DNA from: Actinomycetota bacterium
GTDB taxonomy: Bacteria; Actinomycetota; Actinomycetes; S36-B12; UBA5976
Direction: 5' to 3'
Assembly: GCA_947452765.1 (NCBI GenBank)
Contig: CANGDR010000006.1
Span: 1,184 to 65,183, forward strand
Length of the DNA stretch: 64,000 nt
The position numbers and the translations under genes are program-made. Under the pieces are notes generated by a model. The model searched no databases. It saw only the letters and a list, made by a program, of their open reading frames with translations, and had not been told where the DNA came from. Of the stretch, positions 4,402 through 55,152 are shown piece after piece; positions within the stretch are counted from its first letter, which is position 1, and each line of letters begins with the position of its first letter.

Positions 4402-6644
4402 TAGACGACCTCCAAAGTTTCTGGCGAGGCATTAGTGACACAATTGCGTTCTATTGCAACGAGGGAAACCACTTTAGTGTGGTACCGCGCTTCGATAGCC
4501 TCGTCAGAATATGGATTTCGAACTGGCTCCGGAGTTGCACCCTTTGCATGGCGACCAGCATTTATGCCAAGCATGCGATAAAGCTCTCGAGTTATTGTTG
4601 GCGCAACCGAATACAGTTCTAAATTGGCTAGCGGTGCCAAATCCCGCCTATGAATTAATGCAGTTCCCTTAGCTTGCAGTCCAACACTTATTCCGGATCC
4701 AGAAAGCCGAGCCGCAGTTAAGCCGATCATGCCTAAATCCAGACTGTCGTTGATACGCACAATGCGACCGACGCAGCCTTCTTCTTCAAGTCCAGCCATT
4801 AGTTCGCCGATGACATCTGTAACACTCAAGCCAGAGAGCGTCATCCAAATCTCTCGCCCGGTAGCAGGTGAAACTCCAATCACTACGTCCCTTGGGTCGT
4901 AACTGATTTCAGCAGATCCTCTTACCCGAAGGTTCTGGCTCGCAAATATTTTTTGTTCATTTCGTAAATCTTCAACCGATTTTTGTTGCCGAATGTTGTC
5001 AATCTCGGCTTGTCGTTTAGCAGTTGGCTGGTATCCGGTACCTGGGCCGGAATATTCATTCGGATCGGTAACTAGCGAAAGCACATTCATTTCTTCATCA
5101 AAAATCGCGGAAGTTTGTAAGTAATCACCGACAACGCGCGCCTTAAGCATATTGAGGCAACGTTCGGCCTCTAGATCAAAGCCATTTTCTGCCAACGCTG
5201 AAATTACATCGAGCATCGTTACGTTGGTTTCCATAATTGTTCGGGCCGCATTCAAAGGCAGCATCAGATCGCCGGCGGTAACGTCTTTAGAACCCGCCGC
5301 GTCAACTGCCTGATCTGCCCAAGTTTGACTAAAGTCACCAAGTCCCAGGTGGGAATAAACCGCAGTAACTGCATCGGTCGCACGCTTACGTAATCTAGCT
5401 ACTTCAGTTTCGTCGGCGGTGCGCAATCCACCATCAACTCCCCAGTCGCGTTGCATCGCAAGAAAATCATCAATGTCTTCGGCGTTCCACTGACTAGGAC
5501 CAAACATGTTGTCATATCTTTGGATTGAACCAAATCCGCTATTAATAAAATCTGAGCCACCAATAAATATTGGATGAGTTCGCGAGGTTCGTCGTACATC
5601 TGACTCACTCATTAATGCGTCATTACCTGTGCAGGCTTCAAGATTACGCAGCATGACCATAACGTTTTCCGCCATCATGGATCGAACTCCACCAGGTACT
5701 GCGCCTGCAACCGAGGCCGCGTCAATGCCGCCATTTTGTACGCCCTGCGATCCGATGGCGCGGGCAAGTGCAACACAACGAGCTTCAAGGTAAAACATGC
5801 TGCATTGTTCAGCCCCACCCATTAGAGCTTCAGAGCCGCCACCGGATGTTACGCGCATTTTAATTCCACGACTTGCGTATGCACTTGTTAGAAATGCTTT
5901 GGACCAAGGAGTGTCGTCACCATCAATAAAGATTTGCTCTGTGCCATACAACGAAACAGTCTCGGCATAAGAAACTAGCCCGCGCATACCAAGTGCCAGT
6001 TCCGCAGCTTCTTCGACGGAACATTGAACTAACACACCGGCCGCTCCGACAGCGGCTCCAATTGAAACTGCAACAGCATTTGATGGCGCATCCCCGGCAA
6101 CCGGAACTGTGGTTTCAAGTTCTCTAAATCCAAAGGCGGCAGCAGTAGCAGCGTCCGCAGCAAGTAGTAGCGGATCATCCGACCTGTTAGTTACATGGGC
6201 CTGATTACTCGGTGTACGCCTTGCCCGCATTTTTGTCATTGCGATAACCAATTCCGCGGCAGTCAGTCGCGAAAGTACTTCGGCAAGTTTTGCTGGCGTC
6301 ATACCTGCAGCAAGGCGAACTATGTCTTTGCGGGAGTCGTTTGGATTTACTAGCATTCGAGCAAACTCGAGACTGTCGATAGCCATAGCCTCGGGCGCAA
6401 GGTTTAAATCCAAACCATGGCGTGCAATGAATTCGTCGATTGCATCGAAGTCAGATTCTGATTTTCCGTCGAGTTCAACCACTCGGCCGTCAGAAATTTT
6501 TATGGAAGGCTTCGGGTCGTTTGGTCCGTCAAATGCAACTAGCCCTAGCTCAGGTGCCGGAGTTGCGAAGCCATCGAGATTGACGCGCTGTTCGTTCATA
6601 AAACGAAAGCGGCCAATCGGCTCGTTTGGGGTCATGCCTGGCAT
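4401..6644 (-). CDS. pduC: B12-dependent diol dehydratase, fused large (alpha) + medium (beta) subunits
   Basis: RARRTPSNQAHVTN, DGDDTPWSK, ASRGIKMR and YDNMF of the large subunit; the last ~180 aa (AGLEEEG...SGSGISVGLQAKGTALIH...NLELY) match the medium subunit. Confidence 0.92.
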   Translation of the reverse strand: MPGMTPNEPIGRFRFMNEQRVNLDGFATPAPELGLVAFDGPNDPKPSIKISDGRVVELDGKSESDFDAIDEFIARHGLDLNLAPEAMAIDSLEFARMLVNPNDSRKDIVRLAAGMTPAKLAEVLSRLTAAELVIAMTKMRARRTPSNQAHVTNRSDDPLLLAADAATAAAFGFRELETTVPVAGDAPSNAVAVSIGAAVGAAGVLVQCSVEEAAELALGMRGLVSYAETVSLYGTEQIFIDGDDTPWSKAFLTSAYASRGIKMRVTSGGGSEALMGGAEQCSMFYLEARCVALARAIGSQGVQNGGIDAASVAGAVPGGVRSMMAENVMVMLRNLEACTGNDALMSESDVRRTSRTHPIFIGGSDFINSGFGSIQRYDNMFGPSQWNAEDIDDFLAMQRDWGVDGGLRTADETEVARLRKRATDAVTAVYSHLGLGDFSQTWADQAVDAAGSKDVTAGDLMLPLNAARTIMETNVTMLDVISALAENGFDLEAERCLNMLKARVVGDYLQTSAIFDEEMNVLSLVTDPNEYSGPGTGYQPTAKRQAEIDNIRQQKSVEDLRNEQKIFASQNLRVRGSAEISYDPRDVVIGVSPATGREIWMTLSGLSVTDVIGELMAGLEEEGCVGRIVRINDSLDLGMIGLTAARLSGSGISVGLQAKGTALIHRRDLAPLANLELYSVAPTITRELYRMLGINAGRHAKGATPEPVRNPYSDEAIEARYHTKVVSLVAIERNCVTNASPETLEVV

Positions 6645-7066
6645 GCTCGCTTAAATACTTCAATTCCGGCTTGGGCACAGATTTGATCCTCGTCCCATGA
6701 TCCGCCGCTAACTCCGATTGATCCGACTACTCGTTCGCCATCCCAACACGGAATTCCACCAGCAAATGCAATGTATCGTCCGTTGCCGTTTGCATTCATA
6801 CCTGGCAAGTCGCCATCGGGTGCAACTCGTGCCCGAAGCTCACCAGTTTCAATTCGATTTGTTACTGATGTGTACGCCTTGTCAACTGCCAAATTTGGTC
6901 CAGCAAGTTCTGCGCCATCCATACGTTCAAAACTCAATAAATTTGCACCCGCATCCAAGACGGCGATGGACATCGGAGCATTGATCTCGATTGCTTTTGC
7001 TTTAGCGGCATTAGTCATTTCGAGTGCAAGTGCTAGATCAATTTCCATACGTTCCACCCTTGGCAT
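6632..7066 (-). CDS. GlcG/HbpS family heme-binding protein
   Basis: SIAVLDAG...RMDGA...AVDKAYTS...FAGGIP...GSIGVSGG...DQICA. Confidence 0.88.
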   Translation of the reverse strand: MPRVERMEIDLALALEMTNAAKAKAIEINAPMSIAVLDAGANLLSFERMDGAELAGPNLAVDKAYTSVTNRIETGELRARVAPDGDLPGMNANGNGRYIAFAGGIPCWDGERVVGSIGVSGGSWDEDQICAQAGIEVFKRACQA

Positions 7067-8109
7067 CAGTTGCCTTTCTTATAGGTTTGCCACTGCGCAG
7101 CCTTAGCTCGCATTTTCTGATGCATACCCTGCATAACGTTCACACTACCTAAGTATTCCTTGGCGACTTTAGCGACCATTGTGTAGTTGGTATCAACCAC
7201 ATTTGCCACTGGAGTCAATGCGGTTTGTGAAACAAACTGGTAGCTATCCAAAGTTGATTGACCAGTTAGCTCGCTCACCCAATGCACCATCTGGGTATGT
7301 GCAATTCGAAATGCATCCTCAAGCGGTTTAGTTGAGCCAGTAGTGATGATGTAATCATCTGATTCAATGCGGGGCCACGGTGTTGGAGTCCCCTTGATTA
7401 AATCGATTATCAGTACGGTATCCATGGCAGTCTCAACAGCCACACCGCACGTTTCACCCTCACCTTGGCGGGCATGACCATCACCAAATGAAAATAGGGC
7501 ACCCTCGACATTGACTCCGAGGTAGCAAGTAACGCCTGCGCGCATTTCTGGCGAATCCATATTGCCGCCCCAGTCGCCTGGTGTTAAGGATGAGCGAACT
7601 TCGCCAAGGGCTGGTGCCACTCCGACAGTTCCATGCATCGGATCAAGTGGTAAGGCGGCAGTGAATTTGGTATCGGCTGCTGCGTATCTAACTAAGCGCT
7701 CAGTTAAGTCCAGTTCATAAATCCAAGTTCGTTCCAAAAGTGCTGGCTGCAAAGTTGCAGTTGTCGGTGTTGAAGTAAGCGCGCCAAAGAATGGCACAGT
7801 CGTACTAACGCCCCAAGCTTCACGAGGTTCAATAGAAATGAAGTGAACCGCCAAGGTGTCACCTGGCTCGGCACCTTCGACATAGAACGGTCCGGTTTGC
7901 GGATTTAGAAATCTTGGATCACAAACCTGGGTGGACATGTCACTTGGGGATTTAACGCGCCCACCGAAGCAATCAAATGACCAAGAATCAATTATTGTTC
8001 CTGGCTTAACACTTACGACACCTTCGCGTCCACCGAATGTAAAGGTATGGGTGGCAGGATCGGCATCTTCATCCGGTGCCCAGTTACAAATCTCAAAATC
8101 CATTGTCAT
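7066..8109 (-). CDS. Acetamidase/formamidase family protein
   Basis: NPQTGPFYVEGAEPGDTL, GGNMD, FSFGDGHARQGEGE; start moved to the ATG after an AAGG RBS (8103 is an alternative). Confidence 0.88.
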   Translation of the reverse strand: MTMDFEICNWAPDEDADPATHTFTFGGREGVVSVKPGTIIDSWSFDCFGGRVKSPSDMSTQVCDPRFLNPQTGPFYVEGAEPGDTLAVHFISIEPREAWGVSTTVPFFGALTSTPTTATLQPALLERTWIYELDLTERLVRYAAADTKFTAALPLDPMHGTVGVAPALGEVRSSLTPGDWGGNMDSPEMRAGVTCYLGVNVEGALFSFGDGHARQGEGETCGVAVETAMDTVLIIDLIKGTPTPWPRIESDDYIITTGSTKPLEDAFRIAHTQMVHWVSELTGQSTLDSYQFVSQTALTPVANVVDTNYTMVAKVAKEYLGSVNVMQGMHQKMRAKAAQWQTYKKGN

Positions 8110-8169
8110 GACCTTATTCTTGTGGATCGACTTCTTCGACACTTATGTATTGCCCCAAAAAGTATTCGA

Positions 8170-8221: not shown

Positions 8222-9838
8222 CTAGACGCGCTCGTGAGCTTCCGAAAGAGTCGTTCGCCCAATTTCATCGTAGATTGCTGGATGTTTTGCCTTAACCCAA
8301 TAGGCGTAGAGCAAGCCAACTAGCAATGTTCCAATAATCTGGTGCGGCAGATACTTAACCATCAACGACTGGGACTGGTAGCCGGCAGCGAAGCCGGAAC
8401 CGACTGCACTAAAGAGCAAGGTAAGCGCATAAATCATGCCGCCAGCACCAACAAGTGGAGCTACGAGCGTAGTTAGCACGTTACCCTTTTGCTTCTTTTT
8501 ACCCCAGAAGTAACCGATTACTGCGAATGAACACATGACCTGTACCACAAGAACGAAAGCCGTTCCGACGAGTGAAGGCACGGTGTAGATAACGCTGTAC
8601 GGCAACAAGTTAGGGTCTGAAGTCGCACCTGCTACAGCTGGATCAGATGTCCAAGCGGTTGAGAAGGTAGTAAACAACAACACCATGATGATGTTTATGA
8701 CGGTCACGATTGAGGATGCAACCGCAGGTGATTGATGCTTTGCGCTAACTCCGCCAATCCTTGCGCGCAAATTTGCTGACGGCAGTTCGCGACCAAGTGC
8801 GAATACGTAGCGTGATGCTGCATTGTGGAATGCCATAGCGCATGCGAATGAACCAATAACTAGGAGAATTCGATACAAGTTGTAAGGCAATGTACCTAGA
8901 TTTTCCTGAACTGGAACGAGCCAGAGGTCGACTGGATTTCCAGTACTACCGGATGACACTTCAACAGTTGTCTTGGCGCCATTAGCAACTACTGCCATCC
9001 AGGAAAGGAAGGTGTAGAACAAGCCAAGGCCGATAACTGCAATAAGTGTTGCCCGTGGCACGATCTGCTTAGGGTTTTTGGATTCTTCACCGTAAACGGC
9101 TGTGGTTTCGTATCCGATCCAAGACCAGAAAGCGAAGAAGATACCTAGCGCAGCTGTGCCAGCGGCAACTGATGAACCATATGCGCCTTCAGGAAGATTC
9201 TTGAATGCTGAGCCAAGACCAACTGTGTCGTTAACCATGAAGCCATCAGGTCCACCCTTGATAAGCACCGAGATACCAAAGGCAAGAAGCAATAGAACTT
9301 CGGAGACCAGTGTCACACTGAGAACTGCAGCGGCGAGAGTGATGTCGTAATACGTAAGTATCCAAATCAAAATCATGCCAAGTAATGCAATAACTAACCA
9401 ATTAACAGTTATCCCAGCCATCGCTGTCAAAGTATTTGATGCGAAGTATGCAAAACCACCGATCAAAGTTCCCTCGAACAGGATGTAGGCGATAGTTGCA
9501 AGCAAGCCAGCAGCCATACCCCAAACCTGACCTAAACCGTGTGAGATAAAGCCATAGAACGCACCAGTCGTAGTTATGTACTTCGACATCGCAGCAAAGC
9601 CAACTGTGAAGATTGTCAGAACTATCGTTGCGAATAGGTAACCTGCTGGTACTCCGATTCCATTACCCCAACCAGCACCAACAGGAACGTTGAAGCTCAT
9701 TGCAGTAATAGGCGCTGCGTTAGCAACTGCCATAAACAGAACAGAAACCATGCCTACGGCACCCGTTCTCAGACCCGTGTGAACCACGTGATCTCCCGGA
9801 GACGCACTATCTAGGCGCGAATCATTGTTTGTCGACAT
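8222..9838 (-). CDS. APC-family amino acid/amine permease
   Basis: About 12 hydrophobic segments; GAFYGFISHGLG and FWSWIGYETTAVYGEESKNP motifs. Confidence 0.88.
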   Translation of the reverse strand: MSTNNDSRLDSASPGDHVVHTGLRTGAVGMVSVLFMAVANAAPITAMSFNVPVGAGWGNGIGVPAGYLFATIVLTIFTVGFAAMSKYITTTGAFYGFISHGLGQVWGMAAGLLATIAYILFEGTLIGGFAYFASNTLTAMAGITVNWLVIALLGMILIWILTYYDITLAAAVLSVTLVSEVLLLLAFGISVLIKGGPDGFMVNDTVGLGSAFKNLPEGAYGSSVAAGTAALGIFFAFWSWIGYETTAVYGEESKNPKQIVPRATLIAVIGLGLFYTFLSWMAVVANGAKTTVEVSSGSTGNPVDLWLVPVQENLGTLPYNLYRILLVIGSFACAMAFHNAASRYVFALGRELPSANLRARIGGVSAKHQSPAVASSIVTVINIIMVLLFTTFSTAWTSDPAVAGATSDPNLLPYSVIYTVPSLVGTAFVLVVQVMCSFAVIGYFWGKKKQKGNVLTTLVAPLVGAGGMIYALTLLFSAVGSGFAAGYQSQSLMVKYLPHQIIGTLLVGLLYAYWVKAKHPAIYDEIGRTTLSEAHERV

Positions 9839-10194
9839 TCGTACGACCCTTTCGTTTTAACGTCGAGGAGCTCCCGACATTGCTCACTTGCGGTGACGTC
9901 AGTCACACGTTTGGTACGACTTTGCCAGAAACGCAACAGCAAAACAATGAAATTGGGAGAGTTTTCCAGTGTTTTTTGGTCAAGAGAATATTGAATTTGG
10001 TCTAAAAAATCATAGTGAAGCAGACAAAATAGACATACTTGCCAGTAAAACTAAGGTTTTATGGGGATTTAGTTGATAAACCAAAGTTCAACCAAAAGTT
10101 GCTAAAAGGTATGGTCTTTTGGTCTAATTCTATGTAATCATTTGTTTAGGTGAGCTGTGAATGCAGATGCCAGGCGATAACGAAAGGTTTCGGG
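9839..10194. promoter_or_regulatory. Divergent promoter region with repeated TTTGGT(C) candidate operator half-sites
   Basis: AT-rich 356-bp gap between two divergent operons; TTTGGT at 9910, 9975, 9996 and 10118, and its complement ACCAAA at 10080 and 10091. Confidence 0.55.
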
Positions 10195-11502
10195 ATGACC
10201 CAAGAACACGTTGCTGCACCCGAATTTGATTATGGACTCTTTTCATATGACTCCAAAGAGCAAATGCTTGATAAGTCAAAAGAGTTTTGGAATCCAGGTA
10301 AAACGCAATTCTGGATTGATTCTGGCGTTCCACTTGTAATTGATCGCCGCGAAGAATACTTCATTTATGACATGTCAGGTAAACGCCTGATTGATGCGCA
10401 CCTAAATGGCGGAACTTACAACTTAGGTCACCGCAATCCTGAAGTAGTGCAAGCCGTGACCATGGCAATGCAGCATTTTGATATTGGTAATCACCATTTC
10501 CCCTCACTTGCCCGAACTGCATTAGCGGAAGCTTTGATTAAAACTGCGCCAGCTGGCCTAAGCAAAGTTATCTATGGCTCTGGTGGTGGAGAGGCAATTG
10601 ACATCGCACTTAAGACTGCACGTCATGCAACGCAAAAGCGGAAAATTGTTTCAATTATTAAGGCATATCACGGACACACTGGACTTGCAGTTGGCACTGG
10701 CGATGATCGATTCTCGAAACTTTTCCTTTCAGATCGACCAGAAGAATTTCCGCATGTACCGTTTAATGACCTAGAAGCAATGGAAGATGCATTACGGGGA
10801 CGCGATGTAGCGGCAGTAATTATGGAAACTATTCCAGCCACATATGGATTCCCACTTCCTAACCCAGGATATTTAGAGGCCGTAAAAGTACTTTGCGAGA
10901 AATATGATGCGCTGTACATTGCTGACGAAGTTCAAACCGGCTTAATGCGCACCGGAGAACTTTGGGGAATTACCAAGCACGGAATAACTCCAGACATTCT
11001 TGTCACAGGCAAGGGAATCTCTGGCGGCTTGTATCCAATTGCAGCAGTGCTTGCAACCGAGAAAGCTGCCGGCTGGTTAAACGAAGATGGCTTTGGGCAC
11101 ATCTCAACTTTTGGCGGCGCTGAACTCGGCTGTATTGCCGCACTTAAGACTTTAGAAATTTGCTCCCGTGAAGAAACCCGGTCGATGGTGCATTACATTG
11201 CTGACTACGTTGGTAAGCGGCTTGCCGAAGTTCAAGCAACATATCCTGATTGGTTTGTTGGCATCCGGCAAAACGGCGTAATTCTAGGTTTGGAATTTGC
11301 TCACCCACAAGGTGCAAAGTATGTGATGCGCCACTTATACGAGAACGGCGTGTGGGCAATTTTCTCCACGCTTGATCCGCGGGTACTGCAATACAAGCCA
11401 GGAATTTTACTTAAGCCAGAAGTAGCCGAAGAGATGCTGGATCGCACCGAGCTTGCAATTGGAAAAGCATATGCCGAAATCCGCAACGAGCGGAGATCAT
11501 GA
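10195..11502 (+). CDS. Class-III PLP aminotransferase-like enzyme (probable amino-alcohol-phosphate phospho-lyase of RMM BMC)
   Basis: SGGGEAID, AYHGHT, IADEVQTGLMRTG, GKGISGG (PLP Lys); ATG 10195 after GAAAGG RBS; first gene of the BMC operon. Confidence 0.85.
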   Translation: MTQEHVAAPEFDYGLFSYDSKEQMLDKSKEFWNPGKTQFWIDSGVPLVIDRREEYFIYDMSGKRLIDAHLNGGTYNLGHRNPEVVQAVTMAMQHFDIGNHHFPSLARTALAEALIKTAPAGLSKVIYGSGGGEAIDIALKTARHATQKRKIVSIIKAYHGHTGLAVGTGDDRFSKLFLSDRPEEFPHVPFNDLEAMEDALRGRDVAAVIMETIPATYGFPLPNPGYLEAVKVLCEKYDALYIADEVQTGLMRTGELWGITKHGITPDILVTGKGISGGLYPIAAVLATEKAAGWLNEDGFGHISTFGGAELGCIAALKTLEICSREETRSMVHYIADYVGKRLAEVQATYPDWFVGIRQNGVILGLEFAHPQGAKYVMRHLYENGVWAIFSTLDPRVLQYKPGILLKPEVAEEMLDRTELAIGKAYAEIRNERRS

Positions 11503-13073
11503 TGAGCGAGATGACTTACGAACCGTTGATGGTTGAACCAGCAGGTGTGCCGCGTGGTCGGGCAATGATAGAGCGGGCCGATTGGGCTGCTCGTGCTTAT
11601 GCGAAGTACGACGTTGCAACTGTAAATCGAATCGTTGATGCCGCAGCGTCCGCCCTGGCAGCCAGGGCACAAGAGTTCGCACGCGATGCCGTAGCCGAAA
11701 CTGGCTTTGGTGTAGTTGAACATAAAGTTCTAAAAAATGTAGCTTGCTCCACTGGAATCGTCGATGCTTATCGCGGTCAAGATTTTGTTTCGCCTGAAAT
11801 TGATGACGTAAATAAAATTGTGGCCATTCCTAGGCCAGCCGGCGTAGTCCTGGCATTAACACCATCGACTAACCCCGTAGCTACCGTTTCGTTCAAGATT
11901 ATTTTGGCCTTGATGACTCGAAACGCAATCATTATCAGCCCGCACCCGATGGCTAAGAAGGTATGCTCAGCAGCCGCCAAGGCAATGGCAGAAGCGGCAG
12001 TGGCTGCCGGTGCCCCAGATGGAATCATTCAAATTGTGGAGGATCCTTCGATCCCACTGATAAATGCCCTCATGACAGATGAACGAACCGATGTGATTGT
12101 GGCTACTGGTGGCAGTCCGGTTGTTCGGTCGGCATACCGAAGTGGCAATCCCGCTATTGGCGTTGGTCCGGGCAATGTTCCCGTACTCGTTGACTCAACC
12201 GCCGATATTCAAAAGACGGCCGCTCGAATTATTGAGAGCAAAGCATTCGATAACTCAATTTTATGCACGAACGAAAGTGTCGTAATCGCAGAAGAAGCGA
12301 TTGCAGATAAGTTGCTTTCGGCTTTCGCCCGTGAAGGTGCCTATGTTCTAAAAGATGAAGAGCGCGACGCAATTCGTAACACGGTATTTCCAGAAGGTCA
12401 TTTCAACATCAAGATGGTTGGTAAAGATGCGGTTTGGATTGCAGAGCAAGCCGGCCTAAAAGTTCCAGCAAAAACAAGAGTCTTAGTTGCACCGTTTGAC
12501 TTAGTAGTTCCGGAAGAACCATTTGCACATGAAAAGTTGTGTCCGGTCCTTGGATTTGTTCGAGTTCCAACTGCAGAGCGCGGCATTGATATTGCGCGCG
12601 CCATTTTGCGAATCACCGGAGCGGGACATTCGGCTGCAATTCATAGTGCAAATCCAGATCTCATTATGAAATTTAGTGCTGCTGTCCCAGTGCTTCGGGT
12701 TTCAGTAAATGTTGGAAATAGTCTTGGTGCTTCAGGAATCCAAACGAACTTGCCAACAACTATGACCATCGGCACTGGATTTGCTGGTCGCTCTTCGGTC
12801 GGTGAAAATCTGCAACCAAAGCACCTTATTAACTACACCCGGTTGGCGTATAACTCCGATGTACGCGAAGTCATGCCAGCATTTGCTGGTTTGAATCCCT
12901 GGGTTGCACCGGCTGGTCCGGTCCCTGCCTACCCAACGGCATCAAATGATCGCAATAACGCTCAAGTGCCTGCGCCGATTCATCGTGAACCAATTTCCCA
13001 AGATGTTGCGGAATTGCGAGATGAAATTCGCAAATTGATTGTCGAAGAACTTCACGCATTGATTAAGAACTAA
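11499..13073 (+). CDS. BMC-associated acylating aldehyde dehydrogenase with C-terminal encapsulation peptide
   Basis: PSTNP, ATGG, GVGPGNVP, FDNSILCTNE, HEKLCPVL; Pro-rich linker then amphipathic helix ELRDEIRKLIVEELHALIK. Confidence 0.9.
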   Translation: MMSEMTYEPLMVEPAGVPRGRAMIERADWAARAYAKYDVATVNRIVDAAASALAARAQEFARDAVAETGFGVVEHKVLKNVACSTGIVDAYRGQDFVSPEIDDVNKIVAIPRPAGVVLALTPSTNPVATVSFKIILALMTRNAIIISPHPMAKKVCSAAAKAMAEAAVAAGAPDGIIQIVEDPSIPLINALMTDERTDVIVATGGSPVVRSAYRSGNPAIGVGPGNVPVLVDSTADIQKTAARIIESKAFDNSILCTNESVVIAEEAIADKLLSAFAREGAYVLKDEERDAIRNTVFPEGHFNIKMVGKDAVWIAEQAGLKVPAKTRVLVAPFDLVVPEEPFAHEKLCPVLGFVRVPTAERGIDIARAILRITGAGHSAAIHSANPDLIMKFSAAVPVLRVSVNVGNSLGASGIQTNLPTTMTIGTGFAGRSSVGENLQPKHLINYTRLAYNSDVREVMPAFAGLNPWVAPAGPVPAYPTASNDRNNAQVPAPIHREPISQDVAELRDEIRKLIVEELHALIKN

Positions 13074-13090: not shown

Positions 13091-13690
13091 ATGGCAGAGC
13101 TACGGTCGTTCATCTATATCGACCAGATGCAACCTCAAACTATGTGCTACCTAGGTACATGGGTTAAGGGCGCTTTGCCTCGAGCAAATATGGCTGCACA
13201 AGTCATCGAAGTCGCACCTGGCTTAGATATTGAAGCGTTAACAGATGTGGCACTTAAACACGCAAATGTTCAGGCTGGAATCCTGTTCGTGGAACGCACG
13301 TTTGGCTACTTAGAAATACACGGGCCCACTGAAGAAGTGCGGGCAGCAGGTCAGGCAGTACTTGCAGCGCTCGGAACATCTGAGGCGGAAGCGACTAAGC
13401 CTAAAATCTTGGCTTCTCGAGTTGTACCTTCGATTGATCAGCAACATGCATTCTTGATCAATCGCAACAAGGTCGGCTCGATGATCCTCCCTGGTGAATC
13501 TTTGTACATACTCGAAGTTCAGCCAGCTTCGTATGCAATCTTGGCAACCAACGAAGCGGAAAAGGCAACTGACATTAAAGTTGTCGACTATCGCATGATT
13601 GGCGCAACCGGCCGCGTATATCTATCCGGCAAAGAAGCAAATGTTCGAGCAGCAGCAGAAGTTGCTGAACGAGTTTTGAGTGAGCGCTGA
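13091..13690 (+). CDS. BMC shell protein, tandem-domain BMC-T
   Basis: ELRSFIYID..Q, IEVAPGL, VERTFGYLE, LINRN, ATNEAEKA, GATGRVYLSG. Confidence 0.92.
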   Translation: MAELRSFIYIDQMQPQTMCYLGTWVKGALPRANMAAQVIEVAPGLDIEALTDVALKHANVQAGILFVERTFGYLEIHGPTEEVRAAGQAVLAALGTSEAEATKPKILASRVVPSIDQQHAFLINRNKVGSMILPGESLYILEVQPASYAILATNEAEKATDIKVVDYRMIGATGRVYLSGKEANVRAAAEVAERVLSER

Positions 13691-14178
13691 TGGCTACAGA
13701 TAACGAAATGCTACGCGCGCTTGTGCGTGAAGCGCTGCGTGATGCTCTTGGTGGCGCAAGCGGTGCTAGCGAAATTGCTAAAGCATTGTCTGGAAACGCA
13801 ACACCCGTTCAAAAGCAGGTGCAAGTTGTAGAGATGGTTTCCTTGGCAACGGATGCGCAAGTGCAATCTTTTGTACATCGCATTCTTGACCTAGCGGCCG
13901 ATGAAAAAACTTTGAGCGCATTACGCCAGGGTGAAATCGTTTTTCAATTGTCTGACCAAGCTAAAGCTAATGCTGCTGACAATTCTGGAACCACTCGCGT
14001 AGACAAGGGTGCTGTTACCGAGTCAACCATTAGAAAAGCCGCCGAATCAGGATCAACATTGATCGTAGGGCGCAAAGTTGTCGTCACATCATTAGCGCGA
14101 GATAAAGCTCGCGATTTAGGTGTGACGATCATTAAGGAAAGTCAACAAGATAATCAGAAGGGATCGGTGATGCGCTGA
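13690..14178 (+). CDS. BMC-associated hypothetical protein with N-terminal encapsulation-peptide-like helix
   Basis: NEMLRALVREALRDALG helix; translationally coupled between shell genes. Confidence 0.7.
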   Translation: MATDNEMLRALVREALRDALGGASGASEIAKALSGNATPVQKQVQVVEMVSLATDAQVQSFVHRILDLAADEKTLSALRQGEIVFQLSDQAKANAADNSGTTRVDKGAVTESTIRKAAESGSTLIVGRKVVVTSLARDKARDLGVTIIKESQQDNQKGSVMR

Positions 14179-14447
14179 TGTTAAAAGCGCGAGTCATCGG
14201 CAATGTATGGGCGACCCGTCGTCTAACCGAGATTCCCCATGGGGCGTTTCTCGAGGTCGAAGTTGAAGGTGGCGCACACTTGGTTGCTTTCGACGTATTG
14301 GGTTCCGGAATTGGGGAAAGCGTTTTAGTTTCAACTGGCTCGGTAGCAGCAGCTTGGTTCTCAGACGTAACACCACCAATTGATGCTCTCATCATCGGTT
14401 CGATTGATGAGGACTCTAAGAGTTCTGGGAAGCACAGCGCTTCTTAG
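14178..14447 (+). CDS. BMC vertex pentamer (BMC-P, EutN/CcmL family)
   Basis: ARVIGNVWAT...VAFDVLGSGIGESVLV..GS.A...PIDALIIGSID. Confidence 0.93.
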   Translation: MLKARVIGNVWATRRLTEIPHGAFLEVEVEGGAHLVAFDVLGSGIGESVLVSTGSVAAAWFSDVTPPIDALIIGSIDEDSKSSGKHSAS

Positions 14448-14530
14448 TACACCGCCTGGGAAACCAGGTAAGTAAGACCGAATAAACCGAAAGCAAACAA
14501 CCGTTTGCAATCACAAATAGGAGAAAGAAT

Positions 14531-14815
14531 ATGTCAAGCAACGCACTGGGCTTGATCGAGACTAAGGGATATGTTGCAGCCGTTGCTGCCGCAGATGCCA
14601 TGGTTAAGGCAGCCAATGTAACTATTGTTGCGCGTGAAGAAGTTGGCGACGGTCTTGTAACTGTAGTCATCGTGGGTGATGTCGGCGCAGTTAAGGCTGC
14701 AACTGACGCAGGTGCCGAAGCAGTTAACCAAGTTGGCGAACTAGTTTCACAGCACGTGATTCCACGTCCACACGCAGAACTAAGTAAGTACTTCAAGGTA
14801 GGCGAGTCCGCGTGA
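14531..14815 (+). CDS. BMC shell hexamer (BMC-H)
   Basis: ALGLIETKG...[11 protein letters not shown]...GDVGAVKAA...HVIPRPH. Confidence 0.97.
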
Positions 14816-15468
14816 GTGCGGGCCCACTCGTAGCGGGGCCCGAACTACGCGTCTACTTACTTGTTGAAGAGCTCCAGCAGCAATTTGCTGCATACATGGG
14901 CACGCCGACGCGGGCTCGGGGTTATCCGCCTTATGGTGGTCAACACTCGTTGATCATTGAGGTGGCACCCGGGCTTGCGATCGAGCGAGTAATTGATTTG
15001 GCGCTGAAGTCGGTTCCTGAAGTTGAGCCCGGCATCTTGTTCGTGGAACGGCAGTTTGGTGTGTTAGAAGTTCATGCTTCTGATATCGAATTGGTCAAAC
15101 GGGCTGGTCAAGCGATCCTTGATGGCATTAATGCATCGGCAGCTGACCAACTACGCCCACGGATTCTTTACAGCGACATCATCGAGAACATCACGGATCA
15201 ACATGCCATAATTCTCAACCGCAATCGCCAAGCATCTATGGTGATGCCCGGTGAGTCGCTATTGGTTTATGAAATGACTCCGGCATTGTTTGCGACAGTG
15301 GCTGCAAATGAAGCGGAGAAAGTCGCCCCAGATGTGACATTAGTTGACGTTCAAATGATTGGCGCCGCGGGACGTGTCTATATGAGCGGTTCTACCGCAA
15401 GGGTTACGTTAGCTCGCGATGCAATTACTAAGGCTCTCGAGTCTGTGGTTGGCCGCGAGCAAGGTTAA
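14812..15468 (+). CDS. BMC shell protein, second BMC-T
   Basis: [49 protein letters not shown]; paralogous to 13091..13690. Confidence 0.92.
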
Positions 15469-15542: not shown

Positions 15543-16532
15543 ATGAGTGGGTATTCAAACGAACCTACAAAGTTGCATGAGTTCGCGGTGGATGCTGTCG
15601 CGAAGTTCGGGTATCCACAAGATTCCGAGATTTCGCTACTCAACCTGTCGGAAAATGCAACTTTTAAGGTAACCGATCGGAACTCTGGCCTTGATACGAT
15701 CCTTCGAATTCATCGTCCGCAATATCACACCAAAGAAGCGATCCAAAGTGAACTCGACTGGGTTCAATCATTGCGCGAAATTCAATTAGTTAGAACTCCG
15801 GCTATTTTGCCGGCTGGTTCTGGTGAGCAAATTATTCTCGCAAAAGATTCGACCGGTGAAGAGCGACATGCTGTGATGTTTGAATTTATGCCCGGAGTTG
15901 AACCCACCGAAGATCGCATGGTTGATGATTTCAAAACTTTAGGCGCCATAACCGCACGACTCCATGATCAATCAAAGCAATGGAAACGTCCAAGTAATTT
16001 CTTTAGATTTACTTGGGACCATGAGACTGCGCTAGGCCCGAATGGTCACTGGGGATCTTGGCGCGATGGACTTGCCATGGGGCCAACTGAACTTGAAATA
16101 CTTGGCAAACTGTCTGACACACTCAAATCTCGATTAGAACGCTATGGCAAGAGTGAAGATCGATTTGGGTTGGTACATGCAGACATGCGGTTAGCTAATT
16201 TATTAGTTGCAGGCAGCGACGTAACAGTTATCGATTTTGACGACTGCGGATTTAGCTGGTTTATGTATGACCTTGGGTCGTCCGTTTCGTTTATCGAGGA
16301 TCACCCACTGATACCCGATATGACTGCGTCCTGGGTCGATGGCTATCGAAGCGTTGCCACCTTGAGCAAAGAAGAGGAAGCGGAACTTCCAACTTTCATA
16401 ATGTTTCGTCGGCTACTTCTTGTGTCTTGGGTAGGGACACATCAAGATACCGAGACCGGCAAGGAAATGGGCACAAATTTCACGAAAGTAAGTTGTGAAT
16501 TAGCGGAAAACTACCTATCCAAGTTCGCATAA
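15543..16532 (+). CDS. APH/choline-kinase-fold phosphotransferase (probable aminopropanol kinase)
   Basis: SENATF, LRIHRP, HADMRLANLL, IDFDDCG; conserved position in RMM loci. Confidence 0.85.
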   Translation: MSGYSNEPTKLHEFAVDAVAKFGYPQDSEISLLNLSENATFKVTDRNSGLDTILRIHRPQYHTKEAIQSELDWVQSLREIQLVRTPAILPAGSGEQIILAKDSTGEERHAVMFEFMPGVEPTEDRMVDDFKTLGAITARLHDQSKQWKRPSNFFRFTWDHETALGPNGHWGSWRDGLAMGPTELEILGKLSDTLKSRLERYGKSEDRFGLVHADMRLANLLVAGSDVTVIDFDDCGFSWFMYDLGSSVSFIEDHPLIPDMTASWVDGYRSVATLSKEEEAELPTFIMFRRLLLVSWVGTHQDTETGKEMGTNFTKVSCELAENYLSKFA

Positions 16533-16580
16533 TCAGAGATACTTTTCGGTAACTCGAATAATCGTAAATTGGGAGTACAA

Positions 16581-17363
16581 ATGTTTACATCAGTAGCTGG
16601 ATACTCAGTAATTGTTACTGGCGGCACCAAAGGAATTGGCAAAGGCATTGCCAGAGTTTTTGCTAAAGCTGGGGCAAATGTTCTTATCACGGGTCGAGAC
16701 GAAGTAAGTGCAAAAGCAGCCTGCGCAGAACTAACTGCTTTGGGTGGCGGCACCGTGACTTATTTGCTTGCTGAAGTTAGTAGCAAATCTGACTGTGATC
16801 GTGTTGCAGCGACTGCAATCGAGCGCAATGGTGGAATTGACGTACTTTGCGCCAACGCAGGAATTTTCCCAGACTCAAAATTGGCAACTATGTCGGAAGC
16901 TGACATGGACTTAGTCTTCGGTACCAATGTGAAAGGAACCATGCTTTCAGTTCAAGCTTGCCTACCAGCCTTGGAAAAATCTGGGCATGGCCGAATTGTT
17001 CTTACTTCATCGATCACTGGCCCAATCACAGGATTCCCAGGGTGGTCCCATTACGGAGCTAGTAAAGCAGCGCAACTTGGTTTTATGCGAACAGCTGCAA
17101 TTGAATTAGCTCCAAAAGGAATAACAGTCAACGCGGTGTTGCCAGGAAATATTGCGACTGAAGGCTTAGCTGATATGGGTCCTGAGTATCGAAAAGCAAT
17201 GGAAGCATCAGTTCCGCAAGGTCGTCTCGGCGTAGTTGAAGATATTGGTAACGCAGCACTCTTTTTTGCAACAGCAGAGGCGGCTTATGTTACGGGCCAA
17301 GCGCTAGTCATCGATGGTGGCCAGATTTTGCCAGAATCACTTGCAGCACTCGAAGCAATGTAG
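16581..17363 (+). CDS. Short-chain dehydrogenase (probable 1-amino-2-propanol dehydrogenase / aminoacetone reductase)
   Basis: [35 protein letters not shown]; ATG after GGGAG RBS. Confidence 0.85.
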
Positions 17364-17387: not shown

Positions 17388-18173
17388 GTGAATGAAAACG
17401 ATCTAGGTCGCACTGCCGAAGATGTGCGTCAGCGCATCTTGGCACAAATTTCGACTGGTCAACTTCGCCCAGGTCAAAAATTGATTGCAGAACGAGAACT
17501 CGCGGCTGATTATCAAGTCAGTAGGTCATCTTTGCGACAAGCTCTCTCAGCTTTAGAAGAAATGGGCGTGGTTCGAAGGCTGCCCGGCAGGGGTGGTGGC
17601 ACATTTGTAGCTTCCGAGAAACTTGATCGTGACTTGTCACAAATTGTTGGCGTGCCATCGTTACTTAGGGGCCAAGGATTTACAGCCGGTACGAAATTGA
17701 TAAGCGCATCCGTAATGCAGGCCGACGCAAAGACTCAGCTTGCCTTGGGGCTTTCGGCAGGTGAACATATTTTTGATGTCGTGCGAATTCGGTTGGCAGA
17801 TAGCATTCCAATTTCGCTTGAACATGCAAGGTTCCCAGCTGATATGTTTCCCGGCTTACTAGAACGTCCACTGGGTGATTCGATTTATGAGTTATTGAGC
17901 AAACATTATGGAACTGTTCCGGATGAGGCAGTGGAACAAATTGATTTGATTAACGCCACTACTGACGAAGCTCGAATCCTAGAAGTGCAATTGGGATCAC
18001 CTTTGTTATCTGTGACTCGAACAACCATGGATACGCAAGGGCGGAAAATCGAATATTCGCATGACTTATTTCGAGGCGATCGGACTCGGATAACTGTTCG
18101 GACCAAAGGCCTGCCGCCAACGGCAGACTCACCTGGCGAGCGTGGCAGAACTGTGGAAATCAAGAAAAGTTAA
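17388..18173 (+). CDS. GntR family regulator, HutC/UTRA subfamily
   Basis: wHTH ERELAADYQVSRSSLRQAL...GTFV plus UTRA domain (SIYELL...EYSHDLFRGD). Confidence 0.9.
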   Translation: MNENDLGRTAEDVRQRILAQISTGQLRPGQKLIAERELAADYQVSRSSLRQALSALEEMGVVRRLPGRGGGTFVASEKLDRDLSQIVGVPSLLRGQGFTAGTKLISASVMQADAKTQLALGLSAGEHIFDVVRIRLADSIPISLEHARFPADMFPGLLERPLGDSIYELLSKHYGTVPDEAVEQIDLINATTDEARILEVQLGSPLLSVTRTTMDTQGRKIEYSHDLFRGDRTRITVRTKGLPPTADSPGERGRTVEIKKS

Positions 18174-18323
18174 TTTTGAGATGCCCTATAAACATTGGGT
18201 TTTTTCTTGCAATACCGATCGTTACTGAAAAATGCCCTTTAAATACCCGCAATTGAGGCCAAACCTACGCTAAACAAGTCTTAATCAGATACTCGATCTC
18301 GGTCGAGGGAAAAGGTGACTTGT

Positions 18324-19871
18324 ATGTCTATTAGTGACATGAAAGATGCGGACGAGCGTCGTCTCGCGGAGCTTGGTTATAAGCAGGAACTAGATCGTTC
18401 ATGGTCGTCGTTCTCAAACTTTGCCATTAGCTTCTCAATCATTTCAATTCTTGCCGGATGTTTCACTACATTTGGTCAGGCCTGGAATAACGGTGGACCA
18501 ATTGCAATCTCACTTGGCTGGCCAGTTATTTCCGCATTTATCTTGATCATCGGTTTCTGCATGTCAGAACTTGCTTCGGCATACCCAACTTCCGGTGGTA
18601 TTTACTGGTGGGCATCAAAGCTTGGCGGCGCAAAAGCTGGTTTCTACACCGGCTGGCTGAATCTAATCGGTTTGCTTGCAGTTATCGCATCTGTTGTCTA
18701 CGGTGCTGCATCGTTCTTGAATGTGATCCTGGGATCACTTTCAGATAGCTATGCAACTGGCTTCATGGGTGGCGATTACATTAAGCAGCAATTCGCTTTG
18801 TTCTTGCTCGTAATGGCGCTGGTAACTGTTCTTAACCTTTACTCATCGTCTCTGCTCGGTTTGATCAACAATATTTCCGTTTGGTGGCACGTCTTCGGTG
18901 CAGCCATCGTTATTGTGGTCATGTTCGTTGTGCCAGATAAGCACCAGTCCTTGTCTTGGATATTCACGGAGCGCATTAATAACTCCGGATTCAGCGACAA
19001 CTCTTTCTGGTTCTATGTTTTGCCACTCGGCTTTCTTTTGACCCAGTACACAATCACTGGTTTTGATGCCTCAGCTCACCTAGCTGAAGAAACCCACAAT
19101 GCTGAAATGTCTTCAGCACGGGGAATTTGGCAGTCAATTCTTTACTCAGCCATTGGCGGTTGGGTACTTCTGCTTTCATTCCTATGGGCAGCATCAAACA
19201 CCGACGTAATCAATTCATTCGATCCAGCTGTTAACCCATTCGGTGGCGGTTCGATTATGTCTGTGCTTTGGACTGCACTTCCAAAGGGATTCTTCCTTTT
19301 GGTTATGGCGATCACGACAATCGGTCAGATGTATTGTGCAACTGCATGTCTAACAAGTTGTGCTCGCATGATGTTTGCATTCAGCCGTGATGGTGCCATC
19401 CCAGGTAGCGCAAAGCTAAGCAAGATCAGTTCCAACAAGGCACCAAAGAATGCAGTATTTACCTCTGCAATCATCGGCATCATCATCACATTGCCTGCGC
19501 TTTGGAAATCACCAACCGGTGCACCTACCGCGTTCTATGCAGTGGTATCTGTTTCAGTTATTGGCCTCTACCTAGCGTTTGCAATTCCAATTTTCTTGCG
19601 CTGGCGTCGGCCGGAACGATTCACCGCAGGGCCTTGGACCAATGGAAATAAATACAAGTGGATGAACGTACTTGCAGTTCTTGAAATTGCTATAGTTTCG
19701 GTTTACTTTGTATTGCCATTCACACCAACTGGCGTGCCAGGTAATGCTGACTTCACTTGGACTTCCGTGAACTACGCACCGATTTTGACTTTCGGTACGT
19801 TGATCATCTTGGAAATCTGGTGGCAGCTATCTGCAAAGAAGTGGTTCACTGGACCAAAGCACACAATTTAA
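18324..19871 (+). CDS. Amino acid/amine permease (APC, ACT/GABA-choline-like)
   Basis: LAELGYKQELDR, FSNFAISFS, ELASAYPTSGGIYWWA, GFDASAHLAEET, FAFSRDGAIP. Confidence 0.88.
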   Translation: MSISDMKDADERRLAELGYKQELDRSWSSFSNFAISFSIISILAGCFTTFGQAWNNGGPIAISLGWPVISAFILIIGFCMSELASAYPTSGGIYWWASKLGGAKAGFYTGWLNLIGLLAVIASVVYGAASFLNVILGSLSDSYATGFMGGDYIKQQFALFLLVMALVTVLNLYSSSLLGLINNISVWWHVFGAAIVIVVMFVVPDKHQSLSWIFTERINNSGFSDNSFWFYVLPLGFLLTQYTITGFDASAHLAEETHNAEMSSARGIWQSILYSAIGGWVLLLSFLWAASNTDVINSFDPAVNPFGGGSIMSVLWTALPKGFFLLVMAITTIGQMYCATACLTSCARMMFAFSRDGAIPGSAKLSKISSNKAPKNAVFTSAIIGIIITLPALWKSPTGAPTAFYAVVSVSVIGLYLAFAIPIFLRWRRPERFTAGPWTNGNKYKWMNVLAVLEIAIVSVYFVLPFTPTGVPGNADFTWTSVNYAPILTFGTLIILEIWWQLSAKKWFTGPKHTI

Positions 19872-54579: not shown

Positions 54580-55152
54580 TTACCGAGTGTTACCTGGCTT
54601 CCAAAGTACGTCGCCAATTTCCTTATTTGCAACTCTCGAAAGTATGAATAGTAAATCTGAAAGTCGATTTAAGTAGTTTGCAGCTAGTACGTTCATCCCG
54701 CCGTGGTACATATCCACAGCAGCCCAAGTGCTTCGCTCAGCACGTCGAGCAACCGTACGAGCAACATGCAAGTATGCAGCACCAACCGTTCCGCCAGGCA
54801 AAATGAATGATCGCAAAGCTTCAAGCTCTTCGTTGTATTTATCGCAGGCCGCTTCAAGCCGCTCGATATATTCAGGAGTTACTCGTAGCGGTTCATGTGC
54901 TGGGTTGTCGATAACAGGAGTGCAGAGATCTGCACCTACATCGAACAATTCATTTTGGATATTTAAAAGTAATTCACGAACATCCTCGCGTAGCTCGCCA
55001 GCAGCGATGGCTAAGCCAATTGAGCTGTTGGCTTCATCAACATCCGCATACGCCTTTAGGCGCGGATCGTTCTTTCCGGTTCGGCTCATGTCACCAAGAT
55101 TGGTCGTGCCGTCATCACCAGTGCGGGTGTAAATTCTCGTTAAATTAACCAT
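54580..55152 (-). CDS. Cob(I)alamin adenosyltransferase, PduO type
   Basis: [36 protein letters not shown]. Confidence 0.95.

Follow-up and report, generated by a model that had tools for sequence, protein, structure and literature searches.

The B12-dependent diol dehydratase is a textbook radical enzyme, and engineers have mutated two positions of its pocket, 301 and 336, to shift its substrate range. To our knowledge, its natural substrates are essentially 1,2-propanediol, glycerol, and ethanediol. Here we analyze a 64-kb window (by which we mean the whole stretch of DNA under study) from a streamlined freshwater actinobacterium, the nearest database records being labeled Candidatus Nanopelagicales, freshwater Actinobacteria. 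Its minus strand carries ddAB, a gene for a dehydratase of this type in which position 301, a serine in every studied relative, is an aspartate, close to genes for the catabolism of amino alcohols. The reading that we favor, if with a little less than even confidence, is that ddAB encodes a functional adenosylcobalamin (AdoCbl)- and Ca2+-dependent vicinal-diol dehydratase of a distinct Asp301 subfamily, which would act on a 1,2-diol with a cationic or strongly hydrogen-bond-donating group at C3. As we describe below, this carboxylate-301 subfamily is large, old, and environmentally widespread, and it is tied to amino-alcohol catabolism, not to pdu or dha operons.

The closest characterized relatives are PddABC of Klebsiella oxytoca and the glycerol dehydratase of K. 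pneumoniae (PDB 1dio, 1eex, 1iwp, and 9vi2). The window's enzyme has the same subunit domains, the same Ca2+-binding and catalytic residues, and an adjacent reactivase gene, but it differs from them in having Asp301, Ala336, and the changes T337L, F338M, and H340E (PddA numbering is used throughout), in the fusion of its alpha and beta subunits, in having no gene for a reactivase small subunit beside it, and in its setting, which comprises amino-alcohol catabolic genes and an amine-type permease rather than a pdu or dha operon. In the accessible parts of two accounts of the studied enzymes (PMC7674605, PMC9850924), Ser301 is described as facing, and hydrogen bonding to, the C3 hydroxyl of glycerol in the pro-S binding mode. 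The same parts report that the S301A and Q336A changes lessen inactivation by glycerol while propanediol activity is kept, and that the S301A/Q336A double mutant accommodates 1,2-butanediol, 1,2-hexanediol, and 1,2,4-butanetriol (Yamanishi et al. 2012, via PMC7674605 and PMC9850924). The roles that the initial annotation of the window had given for these two positions, in glycerol inactivation and the admission of longer diols, agree with what is stated there. The natural and engineered enzymes share two altered positions and an alanine at 336, and the double mutant has more space for a larger C3 substituent; however, the natural clade has a carboxylate and not an alanine at 301, and natural Ala336 also occurs with Ser301 elsewhere.

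Two features of the window have precedents. Alpha–beta fusion in nature is known from the dehydratases of Mycobacterium smegmatis and of Mesorhizobium loti (Liu et al. 2010, via PMC7674605); these have the same fused large and medium subunits and a separate small subunit, and the account, as cited there, is of architecture only and gives neither a pocket difference nor a substrate. Loci of type 2 for the Rhodococcus and Mycobacterium microcompartment (RMM2) are also known to contain “diol dehydratase homologs,” which lie on the opposite strand from a gene set that is the same as that of the window (Axen et al. 2014; Sutter et al. 2021). In their accessible parts, these accounts do not mention the pocket and lean toward the dehydratase being unused. 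Here, in contrast, the Asp301 enzymes form a clade of their own that keeps company with the amino-alcohol enzymes in loci lacking a shell as well, and the host is neither Mycobacterium nor Rhodococcus. Our search of the open-access literature found no account of a subfamily with Asp301, of its association with amino-alcohol genes beyond microcompartments, or of enzymes in this class turning over amino-diols.

The minus-strand reading frame of ddAB is uninterrupted over its 747 codons (for coordinates of this and other features, see Table 1). Pfam places Dehydratase_LU (PF02286) at residues 12–558 (783 bits, profile positions 5–551 of 552) and Dehydratase_MU (PF02288) at residues 608–705 of the same protein, so that the two subunits are fused. 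The NCBIfam model NF011979, “propanediol/glycerol family dehydratase large subunit,” is passed with a score of 842.9 against a cut-off of 788. In phmmer searches against PDB chains, ddAB matches 1dio_A (E 2.7e-170) and 9vi2_A (E 6e-211), and its residues 568–746 are matched by the medium-subunit chains 1dio_B and 1iwp_B. Residues 12–551 pair with residues 5–544 of 1dio_A and 6–545 of 1iwp_A; because these spans are equal, there is no insertion or deletion and the offset is a constant seven residues, which equates D308 of the query with position 301 of PddA. The minus-strand translation of 5560–5790 contains QNGGIDAAS and TGNDALMSESD, and in the alignment with the fused glycerol dehydratase 9vi2, QNGAVSC stands over QNGGIDA and NDQTF over NDALM. 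The initial annotation had placed an Asp codon at the Ser301 position and an Ala codon at the Gln336 position, and both assignments are exact, in coordinates and in codons, in this gap-free alignment to PddA and glycerol dehydratase. V300I and C302A complete the substitutions near the pocket relative to PddA.

It had also been claimed that the catalytic and metal-binding residues are intact, and we find all of them at the aligned positions: the Ca2+ ligands Gln141, Glu170, Glu221, Gln296, and Ser362, and the catalytic residues His143, Glu170, and Asp335. Immediately downstream are genes for the small (gamma) subunit and a reactivase large subunit (which scores 149.7 bits against the NCBIfam PduG model, under that model's cut-off). 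No open reading frame (ORF) for a reactivase small subunit adjoins the latter, the search having covered this locus and not the rest of the genome. A PduO-type ATP:cob(I)alamin adenosyltransferase is encoded elsewhere in the window; it is the only adenosyltransferase found in the 1.6-Mb, 92%-complete genome, in which there was no match to a CobA-type enzyme. There is no cobalamin riboswitch, and indeed no Rfam match, anywhere in the 64 kb. Given the gap-free alignment, the catalytic and Ca2+-binding residues, the adjacent gamma subunit and reactivase, and the adenosyltransferase in the window, the enzyme looks complete. By every structural criterion tested, the gene is predicted to encode an intact AdoCbl diol dehydratase, a member of the diol/glycerol dehydratase superfamily. 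However, it lacks the C3-facing Ser301/Gln336 pair of the propanediol/glycerol enzymes and appears to represent a variant subfamily, not a propanediol/glycerol dehydratase proper.

The substitution at 301 is invariant among relatives. Asp301 and Ala336 occur in all 120 of the closest database homologs, and each is present in all 80 loci of the window's clade recovered from a collection of species-representative genomes (68%–89% identity). Metagenome contigs yielded a second Asp301 clade, whose identity to the window's enzyme is only ∼50%. The 80 loci of this second clade all have Asp301-Gly302, 79 have Arg337, and 79 have Glu340, whereas position 336 is Ala in 71, Thr in eight, and Cys in one. 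(One member of this clade, P0122, had no close relative among 401 Actinomycetota genomes, in which the best identity was 49%–50%; its clade was found later, in the metagenome contigs.) The Ca2+ ligands are retained in 80 of 80 loci of each clade. The Asp301 codon is GAT in 47 and GAC in 113 of the 160 loci, and the pocket residues in general show synonymous codon variation without amino acid change. Because both Asp codons are used, conservation at 301 acts on the amino acid despite synonymous change, and Asp301 is, on this evidence, neither a chance substitution nor a sequencing error.

To place these enzymes among others, we surveyed cluster representatives at 50% identity (47 of which cover neither column) and built a tree of 98 alpha sequences, cut to 61 rows at 90% identity (IQ-TREE quick search, LG+G4). 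The listed representatives that cover both columns have, at 301/336, S/A (22), D/A (20), D/T (nine), S/Q (six), D/N (two), D/S (one), and D/G (one), in addition to a few garbled fragments. The pocket types seen are therefore the canonical Ser-Cys...Asp-Gln, a Ser-Cys...Asp-Ala type, and Asp-Gly/Ser/Ala...Asp-Ala/Thr/Asn/Ser. In the tree, a branch with SH-aLRT support of 99 separates 12 Ser301 rows from all 48 Asp301 rows plus one other sequence, P0136, and every one of the 12 rows on the canonical side has Ser301. The split also extends to position 340, which is Glu in 47 of the 48 Asp301 rows and His (11) or Asn (one) in the 12 Ser301 rows. Asp301 is, as judged from the tree and the codons, an old, selected, and defining change of a deep clade.

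Ala336 is less diagnostic, because it occurs with Ser301 too (in 22 representative clusters) and because Asp301 enzymes in some cases carry Thr, Asn, Ser, or Cys there; in these comparisons it appears as a frequent companion, neither necessary nor specific. The initial annotation had raised the possibility that Asp and Ala segregate together with RMM-linked homologs. This holds strongly for Asp301, but too much weight had been given to Ala336. A separate natural clade (P0124, P0129, P0134, P0135, and locus L085 on contig G249:C15) has Ser301 with Ala336 in the motif SC...DAIAH and is alpha–beta fused, making it nature's version of the engineered Q336A enzyme; in G249, the sole context of that clade that was checked, there were no amino-alcohol genes nearby. 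As for P0136, it sits on a very long branch, and its sequence leaves the family just past Gln296, with positions 301, 335, and 336 scrambled. It is probably a frameshifted gene call rather than a real third pocket type.

The window has RMM shell proteins, a syntenic set of genes for an aminotransferase, an aldehyde dehydrogenase, a kinase, a short-chain dehydrogenase/reductase (SDR), a GntR regulator, and a permease, and a dehydratase on the opposite strand; this gene content makes it an RMM2-type locus in the sense of Axen et al. (2014). Neither a phosphotransacylase nor an Fe-alcohol dehydrogenase, both looked for as marks of a canonical propanediol utilization (PDU) microcompartment, is present among the 20 genes annotated in 1–21 kb. 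The kinase and the SDR are matched by PDB entries 6ef6 and 6ci8/6ci9, which we take to be the (S)-1-amino-2-propanol kinase and 1-amino-2-propanol dehydrogenase of the M. smegmatis RMM, and so we regard the window's proteins as their orthologs. By analogy with the same M. smegmatis pathway, the aminotransferase-fold enzyme is presumably a 1-amino-2-propanol O-phosphate phospho-lyase. That pathway is said to have been worked out by Mallette and Kimber.

We examined linkage using the window's proteins as tblastn queries (at least 50% query coverage, and identity of at least 45% for the SDR, 38% for the kinase, and 50% for the aminotransferase), counting separately the long loci, i.e., those with at least 12 kb of flank. 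An ortholog of the SDR, kinase, or aminotransferase was found in 54 of 80 loci of the window's clade, including 46 of the 52 long ones, and in 26 of 80 loci of the second clade, including 15 of its 25 long ones. Six long loci of the window's clade had none, and four of these (L013, L014, L039, and L069) have <4.2 kb on the side of the expected genes. None of five Ser301 control loci has any of these orthologs. The controls come from the same phylum sample, in which eight of 401 genomes had any dehydratase; two of them (G125 and G037) are PDU-like, with BMC-H, a reactivase, and a PduP-like dehydrogenase. Shell genes accompany 39 of the 46 linked long loci of the window's clade and are absent from seven, whereas in the second clade only five of 25 long loci have shell genes and 11 of the 15 linked ones have none. 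Because many Asp301 loci have no shell genes, it is the amino-alcohol enzymes, and not the RMM shell, with which the dehydratase is linked. The amine-centered neighborhood described in the initial annotation is borne out by the counts for long loci, and so is the tie to the amino-alcohol part of RMM, but the shell itself is not the partner. The enzyme is no chance propanediol dehydratase that happens to lie next to a microcompartment.

The arrangement of the linked genes varies. Nanopelagicales-type loci have divergent operons and shell genes, and in Streptosporangiaceae-type loci the dehydratase lies immediately downstream of GntR and shares its strand. In a Mycobacterium-like genome (G152; pocket Asp301/Asn336), GntR, SDR, kinase, and aminotransferase genes are divergent from a permease, ddAB, ddC, and a reactivase, and there is no shell. 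The common order in the second clade is an aminotransferase (divergent), ddAB, ddC, an isochorismatase-like gene, an APC permease or PotD-like ABC system, SDR, AraC, and kinase. One locus (L150) has permease, SDR, aminotransferase, kinase, ddAB, and ddC in a single co-directional run, and gammaproteobacterial loci have dehydratase, AraC, an SBP_bac_6 (PotD-like) ABC system, SDR, and kinase. Reactivase genes, searched for with the window's protein as query, adjoin the dehydratase in none of the 80 second-clade loci. Since the link recurs in different orders, phyla, and architectures and is absent from Ser301 loci, functional coupling is the simplest reading.

Co-occurrence across genomes points the same way. 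In a set of 151 genomes from the window's order, the dehydratase is present in 27, the kinase in 26, and both in 26; none has the kinase only, 124 have neither, and the single dehydratase-only genome (G496) holds a fragment at a contig end. The island is patchy: 10 of the 15 other genomes in the window's genus carry dehydratase and kinase, none of the 17 genomes from the family's other genera does, and the island is present in eight of the order's 40 genera. The genomes concerned measure 1.2–1.8 Mb, and in them the island is an accessory trait.

One could suppose that the dehydratase is a decaying or noncatalytic passenger of this island, and Axen et al. (2014), in the part available, judged that the RMM2 compartment does not use the dehydratase genes, because these lie on the opposite strand. 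We consider this very improbable indeed. The 747-codon frame is intact with every catalytic residue kept, the gamma subunit and reactivase are conserved, and the pocket varies synonymously without amino acid change over 160 loci, as expected of purifying selection. Co-occurrence with the kinase is near perfect, and in L073-type and L150-type loci the dehydratase is on the strand of the amino-alcohol genes.

A more serious alternative, although we hold it to be somewhat unlikely, is an ordinary 1,2-propanediol/glycerol dehydratase that is inherited along with the aminopropanol pathway. The reason would be that the two routes share propionaldehyde as their end product, which a single aldehyde dehydrogenase and shell then handle. 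Asp301/Ala336 would then only tune the enzyme (e.g., against glycerol inactivation) or reflect lineage history. The residues that bind both hydroxyls and Ca2+ are all canonical, the NCBI propanediol/glycerol dehydratase model is passed, and engineered changes at 301 and 336 alter glycerol inactivation and keep propanediol activity, as far as the accounts cited above go. In addition, a possibly bifunctional RMM2 compartment has been proposed (Axen et al. 2014), and a route from 1-amino-2-propanol through lactaldehyde to 1,2-propanediol has been sketched (Ravcheev et al. 2019), both in parts of those papers that are accessible. However, a buried carboxylate beside a methyl group would be odd, yet it is invariant across clades that are ∼50% identical, and Ser is equally invariant in the 12 canonical rows. 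A neutral diol does not need the amino-acid/organocation permease or PotD-like ABC system that these operons encode, many Asp301 loci have neither a shell nor an acylating aldehyde dehydrogenase nearby, and the linkage is seen in 0 of five Ser301 loci. If the substrate does prove to be plain propanediol, the subfamily would still illustrate natural variation at position 301.

Transport genes bear on the choice. The transporters beside Asp301 dehydratases are of amine type, either APC permeases or SBP_bac_6/8 plus PotA-like ABC systems, and no propanediol-channel gene is among the annotated neighbors. Two unrelated amidohydrolase families are also found in dehydratase operons: an acetamidase/formamidase-family (FmdA/AmdA-like) protein in the window's clade, where its gene is conserved in most actinobacterial loci, and an isochorismatase-like protein, weakly BiuH/RutB-like, encoded directly after ddC in 33 of 80 second-clade loci (within L103–L182; e.g., L118:3623–4324). 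The presence of unrelated amidohydrolases in the operons of both clades hints at an amide-cleaving step. From the annotations, it looks like nonorthologous displacement, and what is imported may carry an N-acyl or N-carbamoyl group. An isochorismatase-family gene upstream of the dehydratase in the gammaproteobacterial locus L018 was considered as a parallel to the actinobacterial amidase and dropped, as NCBIfam identifies it as a bona fide nicotinamidase. In five of 80 second-clade loci, a betaine-aldehyde/aminobutyraldehyde-dehydrogenase-like gene adjoins the dehydratase, which fits an amino-aldehyde product.

These amidohydrolases also suit another alternative, namely that the substrate is some other polar, noncationic diol and that Asp301 serves as the hydrogen-bond acceptor for a hydroxyl or for the NH of an amide. 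A triol, a tetrol, an N-acyl or N-carbamoyl aminopropanediol, or glyceramide would be examples, with the amidohydrolase acting before or after the dehydratase. In the portions of the accounts cited above, Ser301 indeed bonds the C3 hydroxyl and S301A/Q336A variants take 1,2,4-butanetriol. We think this quite unlikely, because it does not account for why the aminopropanol dehydrogenase, kinase, and lyase, and amine-type transporters, are so persistently linked to the enzyme. Moreover, amidohydrolases are absent from the Mycobacterium-like, Streptosporangiaceae-type, and gammaproteobacterial Asp301 loci, and the isochorismatase-family gene of L018 is a plain nicotinamidase.

The amine-bearing diol remains the reading that we favor. 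By homology with the studied enzymes, Asp301 should face whatever C2 of the bound diol carries, and in the window's clade the predicted pocket also has Ala336, Leu337, Met338, and Glu340. The carboxylate at 301, the organocation/polyamine-type transporters, and the constant presence of 1,2-amino-alcohol enzymes together suggest an ammonium group or a strong hydrogen-bond donor on the diol. A small 1,2-diol with such a group at C3 would enter through the operon's own amine-type transporter (the APC permease in the window, a PotD-like ABC system elsewhere). The simplest candidate is 3-amino-1,2-propanediol or an N-substituted relative, and relatives one carbon longer are also possible. The operon-encoded amidohydrolase may first free the diol from an amide. 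Both hydroxyls would then bind Ca2+ and the ammonium group would meet Asp301, after which a radical 1,2-hydroxyl shift, with Glu170 as general base and His143 and Asp335 acting on the migrating hydroxyl, would dehydrate the diol to an amino-carbonyl for the neighboring enzymes to process. Because the Ca2+ site, Glu170, His143, and Asp335 are all kept, such a shift on a vicinal diol is most likely, rather than a C–N shift.

Two known systems help to frame this proposal. In CutC, as compared with the glycyl-radical diol dehydratases, an active-site Asp that meets the ammonium group accompanies the switch from neutral diols to a cationic amino alcohol. This is an analogy only, given that fold, cofactor, and chemistry (C–N cleavage) differ, and no homology is implied. 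The ethanolamine ammonia-lyase EutBC is an AdoCbl eliminase that acts on small amino alcohols and is often associated with a microcompartment. However, its subunits are of another family and it does not hold a vicinal diol on Ca2+, whereas the window's enzyme keeps every diol-binding residue, so that a C–O rather than a C–N shift is expected.

With the canonical regiochemistry, 3-amino-1,2-propanediol would yield 3-aminopropanal, and with reversed binding, aminoacetone. A specific version of the proposal, which we regard as distinctly improbable, is that the Asp301 enzymes are amino-diol dehydratases that bind 3-amino-1,2-propanediol in the reversed orientation, abstract the C2 hydrogen, and release aminoacetone. 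The dehydratase would then be followed by the SDR as an aminoacetone reductase, the kinase, the phospho-lyase to propionaldehyde, and the acylating aldehyde dehydrogenase, whose NAD(P)H the SDR would re-oxidize. If this version is true, the dehydratase would be the missing, ketone-forming entry enzyme of an “aminoacetone utilization” pathway that is widespread in freshwater, soil, and marine bacteria, and would add the first natural B12 eliminase specificity to the family in decades.

Several points weigh against an amino-diol substrate. On the chemical side, 3-aminopropanal is not a known substrate of the neighboring dehydrogenase, kinase, or lyase; the aminoacetone route would feed these enzymes, but it needs reversed binding, and Asp301 is then not an obvious contact. 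We know of no evidence that establishes 3-amino-1,2-propanediol as a natural metabolite, a hydroxyl or an amide group could be held by an Asp just as well, and the shared product propionaldehyde alone could explain the co-inheritance of a propanediol dehydratase with the aminopropanol pathway. In the second clade, Arg337 lies beside the pocket and could neutralize Asp301. In an AlphaFold2 model of ddAB built from 16 aligned rows, pLDDT averages 69 and is <50 in residues 299–314 and 341–356, i.e., in both pocket loops, so the orientation of Asp301 is a prediction from homology. There are also unlinked Asp301 genes: 10 of the 25 long second-clade loci have no marker genes, and in a Mycobacterium-like genome one Asp301 copy (G111:C5) sits among unrelated genes, while another (G111:C17, Asp301/Ser336) has as neighbors only an APC permease and a PucR regulator. 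Finally, the loci and genomes counted are kin, and the counts overstate their independence.

Even so, the amino-diol substrate first put forward in the initial annotation is plausible, and better supported by the comparative evidence than before. It gives a concrete, testable answer to a question open since 2014, the role of the RMM2-locus dehydratase, and it points to an unrecognized amine-bearing diol as a nutrient of abundant, streamlined freshwater Actinobacteria. It also suggests that, for thousands of metagenomic genes, the annotation “propanediol dehydratase large subunit” is probably wrong in substrate.

Table 1. Positions, within the 64-kb window, of the dehydratase gene, its pocket codons, and the surrounding features
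Feature	Position	Strand	Evidence or remark
Reactivase large subunit of diol dehydratase, 549 aa	2378–4027	−	Pfam DDR + DDR_swiveling
ddC, dehydratase small (gamma) subunit, 122 aa	4033–4401	−	Pfam Dehydratase_SU (PF02287), E 7.8e-37
ddAB, fused large (alpha) + medium (beta) subunit of AdoCbl-dependent diol/glycerol dehydratase, 747 aa	4401–6644	−	
Glu codon at PddA His340 position (query E347), second clade-specific carboxylate	5604–5606	−	PDB alignment register
Ala codon at PddA Gln336 position (query A343)	5616–5618	−	PDB alignment register
Asp codon at PddA Ser301 position (query D308)	5721–5723	−	PDB alignment register
HbpS/GlcG-like protein, overlaps start of ddAB	6632–7066	−	Pfam PF03928, E 2.6e-33; kept upstream of ddAB in most clade loci
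Acetamidase/formamidase-family (FmdA/AmdA-like) protein	7066–8142	−	Pfam FmdA_AmdA, 83 bits; PDB 5ubu, E 3e-57
perm1, APC-superfamily permease, first gene of dehydratase operon	8222–9838	−	Pfam AA_permease_2
Divergent intergenic region between dehydratase and RMM operons	9839–10149		311 bp; both TTGGTCTA copies
Class-III aminotransferase-fold enzyme, RMM operon	10150–11502	+	Pfam Aminotran_3
CoA-acylating aldehyde dehydrogenase (EutE/PduP type)	11499–13073	+	Pfam Aldedh; NCBIfam EutH_ACDH, 394 bits, under cut-off
Shell genes overall	13091–15468	+	Pfam BMC, EutN_CcmL
BMC-domain protein	13091–13690	+	Pfam BMC/EutN_CcmL scan
orf162 (162 aa), inside shell operon	13690–14178	+	29%–90% identity in many related RMM loci
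BMC-P	14178–14447	+	Pfam BMC/EutN_CcmL scan
BMC-H	14531–14815	+	Pfam BMC/EutN_CcmL scan
Tandem BMC-T	14812–15468	+	PDB 5suh “MSM0271 protein,” E 2.4e-96; 5l39 “RMM microcompartment shell protein MSM0275,” E 8e-48
APH-fold kinase	15543–16532	+	PDB 6ef6, E 2.6e-88
SDR	16569–17363	+	PDB 6ci8/6ci9, E about 1e-99
GntR/HutC-type regulator, UTRA domain	17388–18173	+	Pfam GntR + UTRA
Second APC permease, the one shared with RMM1-type loci	18315–19871	+	Pfam AA_permease_2, E 2.7e-51
PduO-type ATP:cob(I)alamin adenosyltransferase	54580–55152	−	PF01923 match at G000:C6:55811–56317, E 1.3e-60

The dehydratase operon runs, on the minus strand, from the APC permease through the FmdA/AmdA-like, HbpS/GlcG-like, ddAB, ddC, and reactivase genes to an Amidohydro_3 gene and a fused urease gamma/beta gene. 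The permease perm1, which has weak NCBIfam matches to models of amino-acid transporters and an ethanolamine permease, is present in 41 of the 52 long loci of the clade. No terminal encapsulation peptide of the kind carried by canonical PDU dehydratase subunits is apparent, although no formal search for one was made: the ddAB product starts only seven residues ahead of PddA and its beta N terminus is internal to the fusion. The Amidohydro_3 and urease genes (1–2296 of the window, minus strand) follow the dehydratase operon in Nanopelagicales-type loci only (L002–L017), an adjacency that could be due to chance or to a further nitrogen-releasing step.

On the RMM side, orf162 had no Pfam or PDB match. 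The 8-nt motif TTGGTCTA occurs at 9997–10004 and 10119–10126. These are the sole copies in the window, and both fall in the 311-bp divergent region; the count as such is not above chance (two, against 1.26 expected in the window). Their co-location is suggestive, the motif is a possible half-site for the HutC-type GntR regulator, and the divergent region may have a regulatory role.

Dehydratases from five loci labeled as Gammaproteobacteria or marine bacterium (L018, L019, L021, L022, and L038) are 78%–81% identical to that of the window and nested inside the Nanopelagicales clade, which suggests recent transfer between phyla. Shell genes are absent from these loci. One of them (L021) has a dimethylglycine/sarcosine-dehydrogenase-like gene directly upstream of the dehydratase, and another (L022) has a sugar-type ABC system.

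The window has a G+C content of 48.6%, and its annotated genes at 21–37 kb are housekeeping genes. Within that region, a 580-aa ORF (33837–35579, plus strand) may encode a second cobalamin protein; a weak match to a B12-binding domain (30 bits, under the cut-off) is all that Pfam gives for it.

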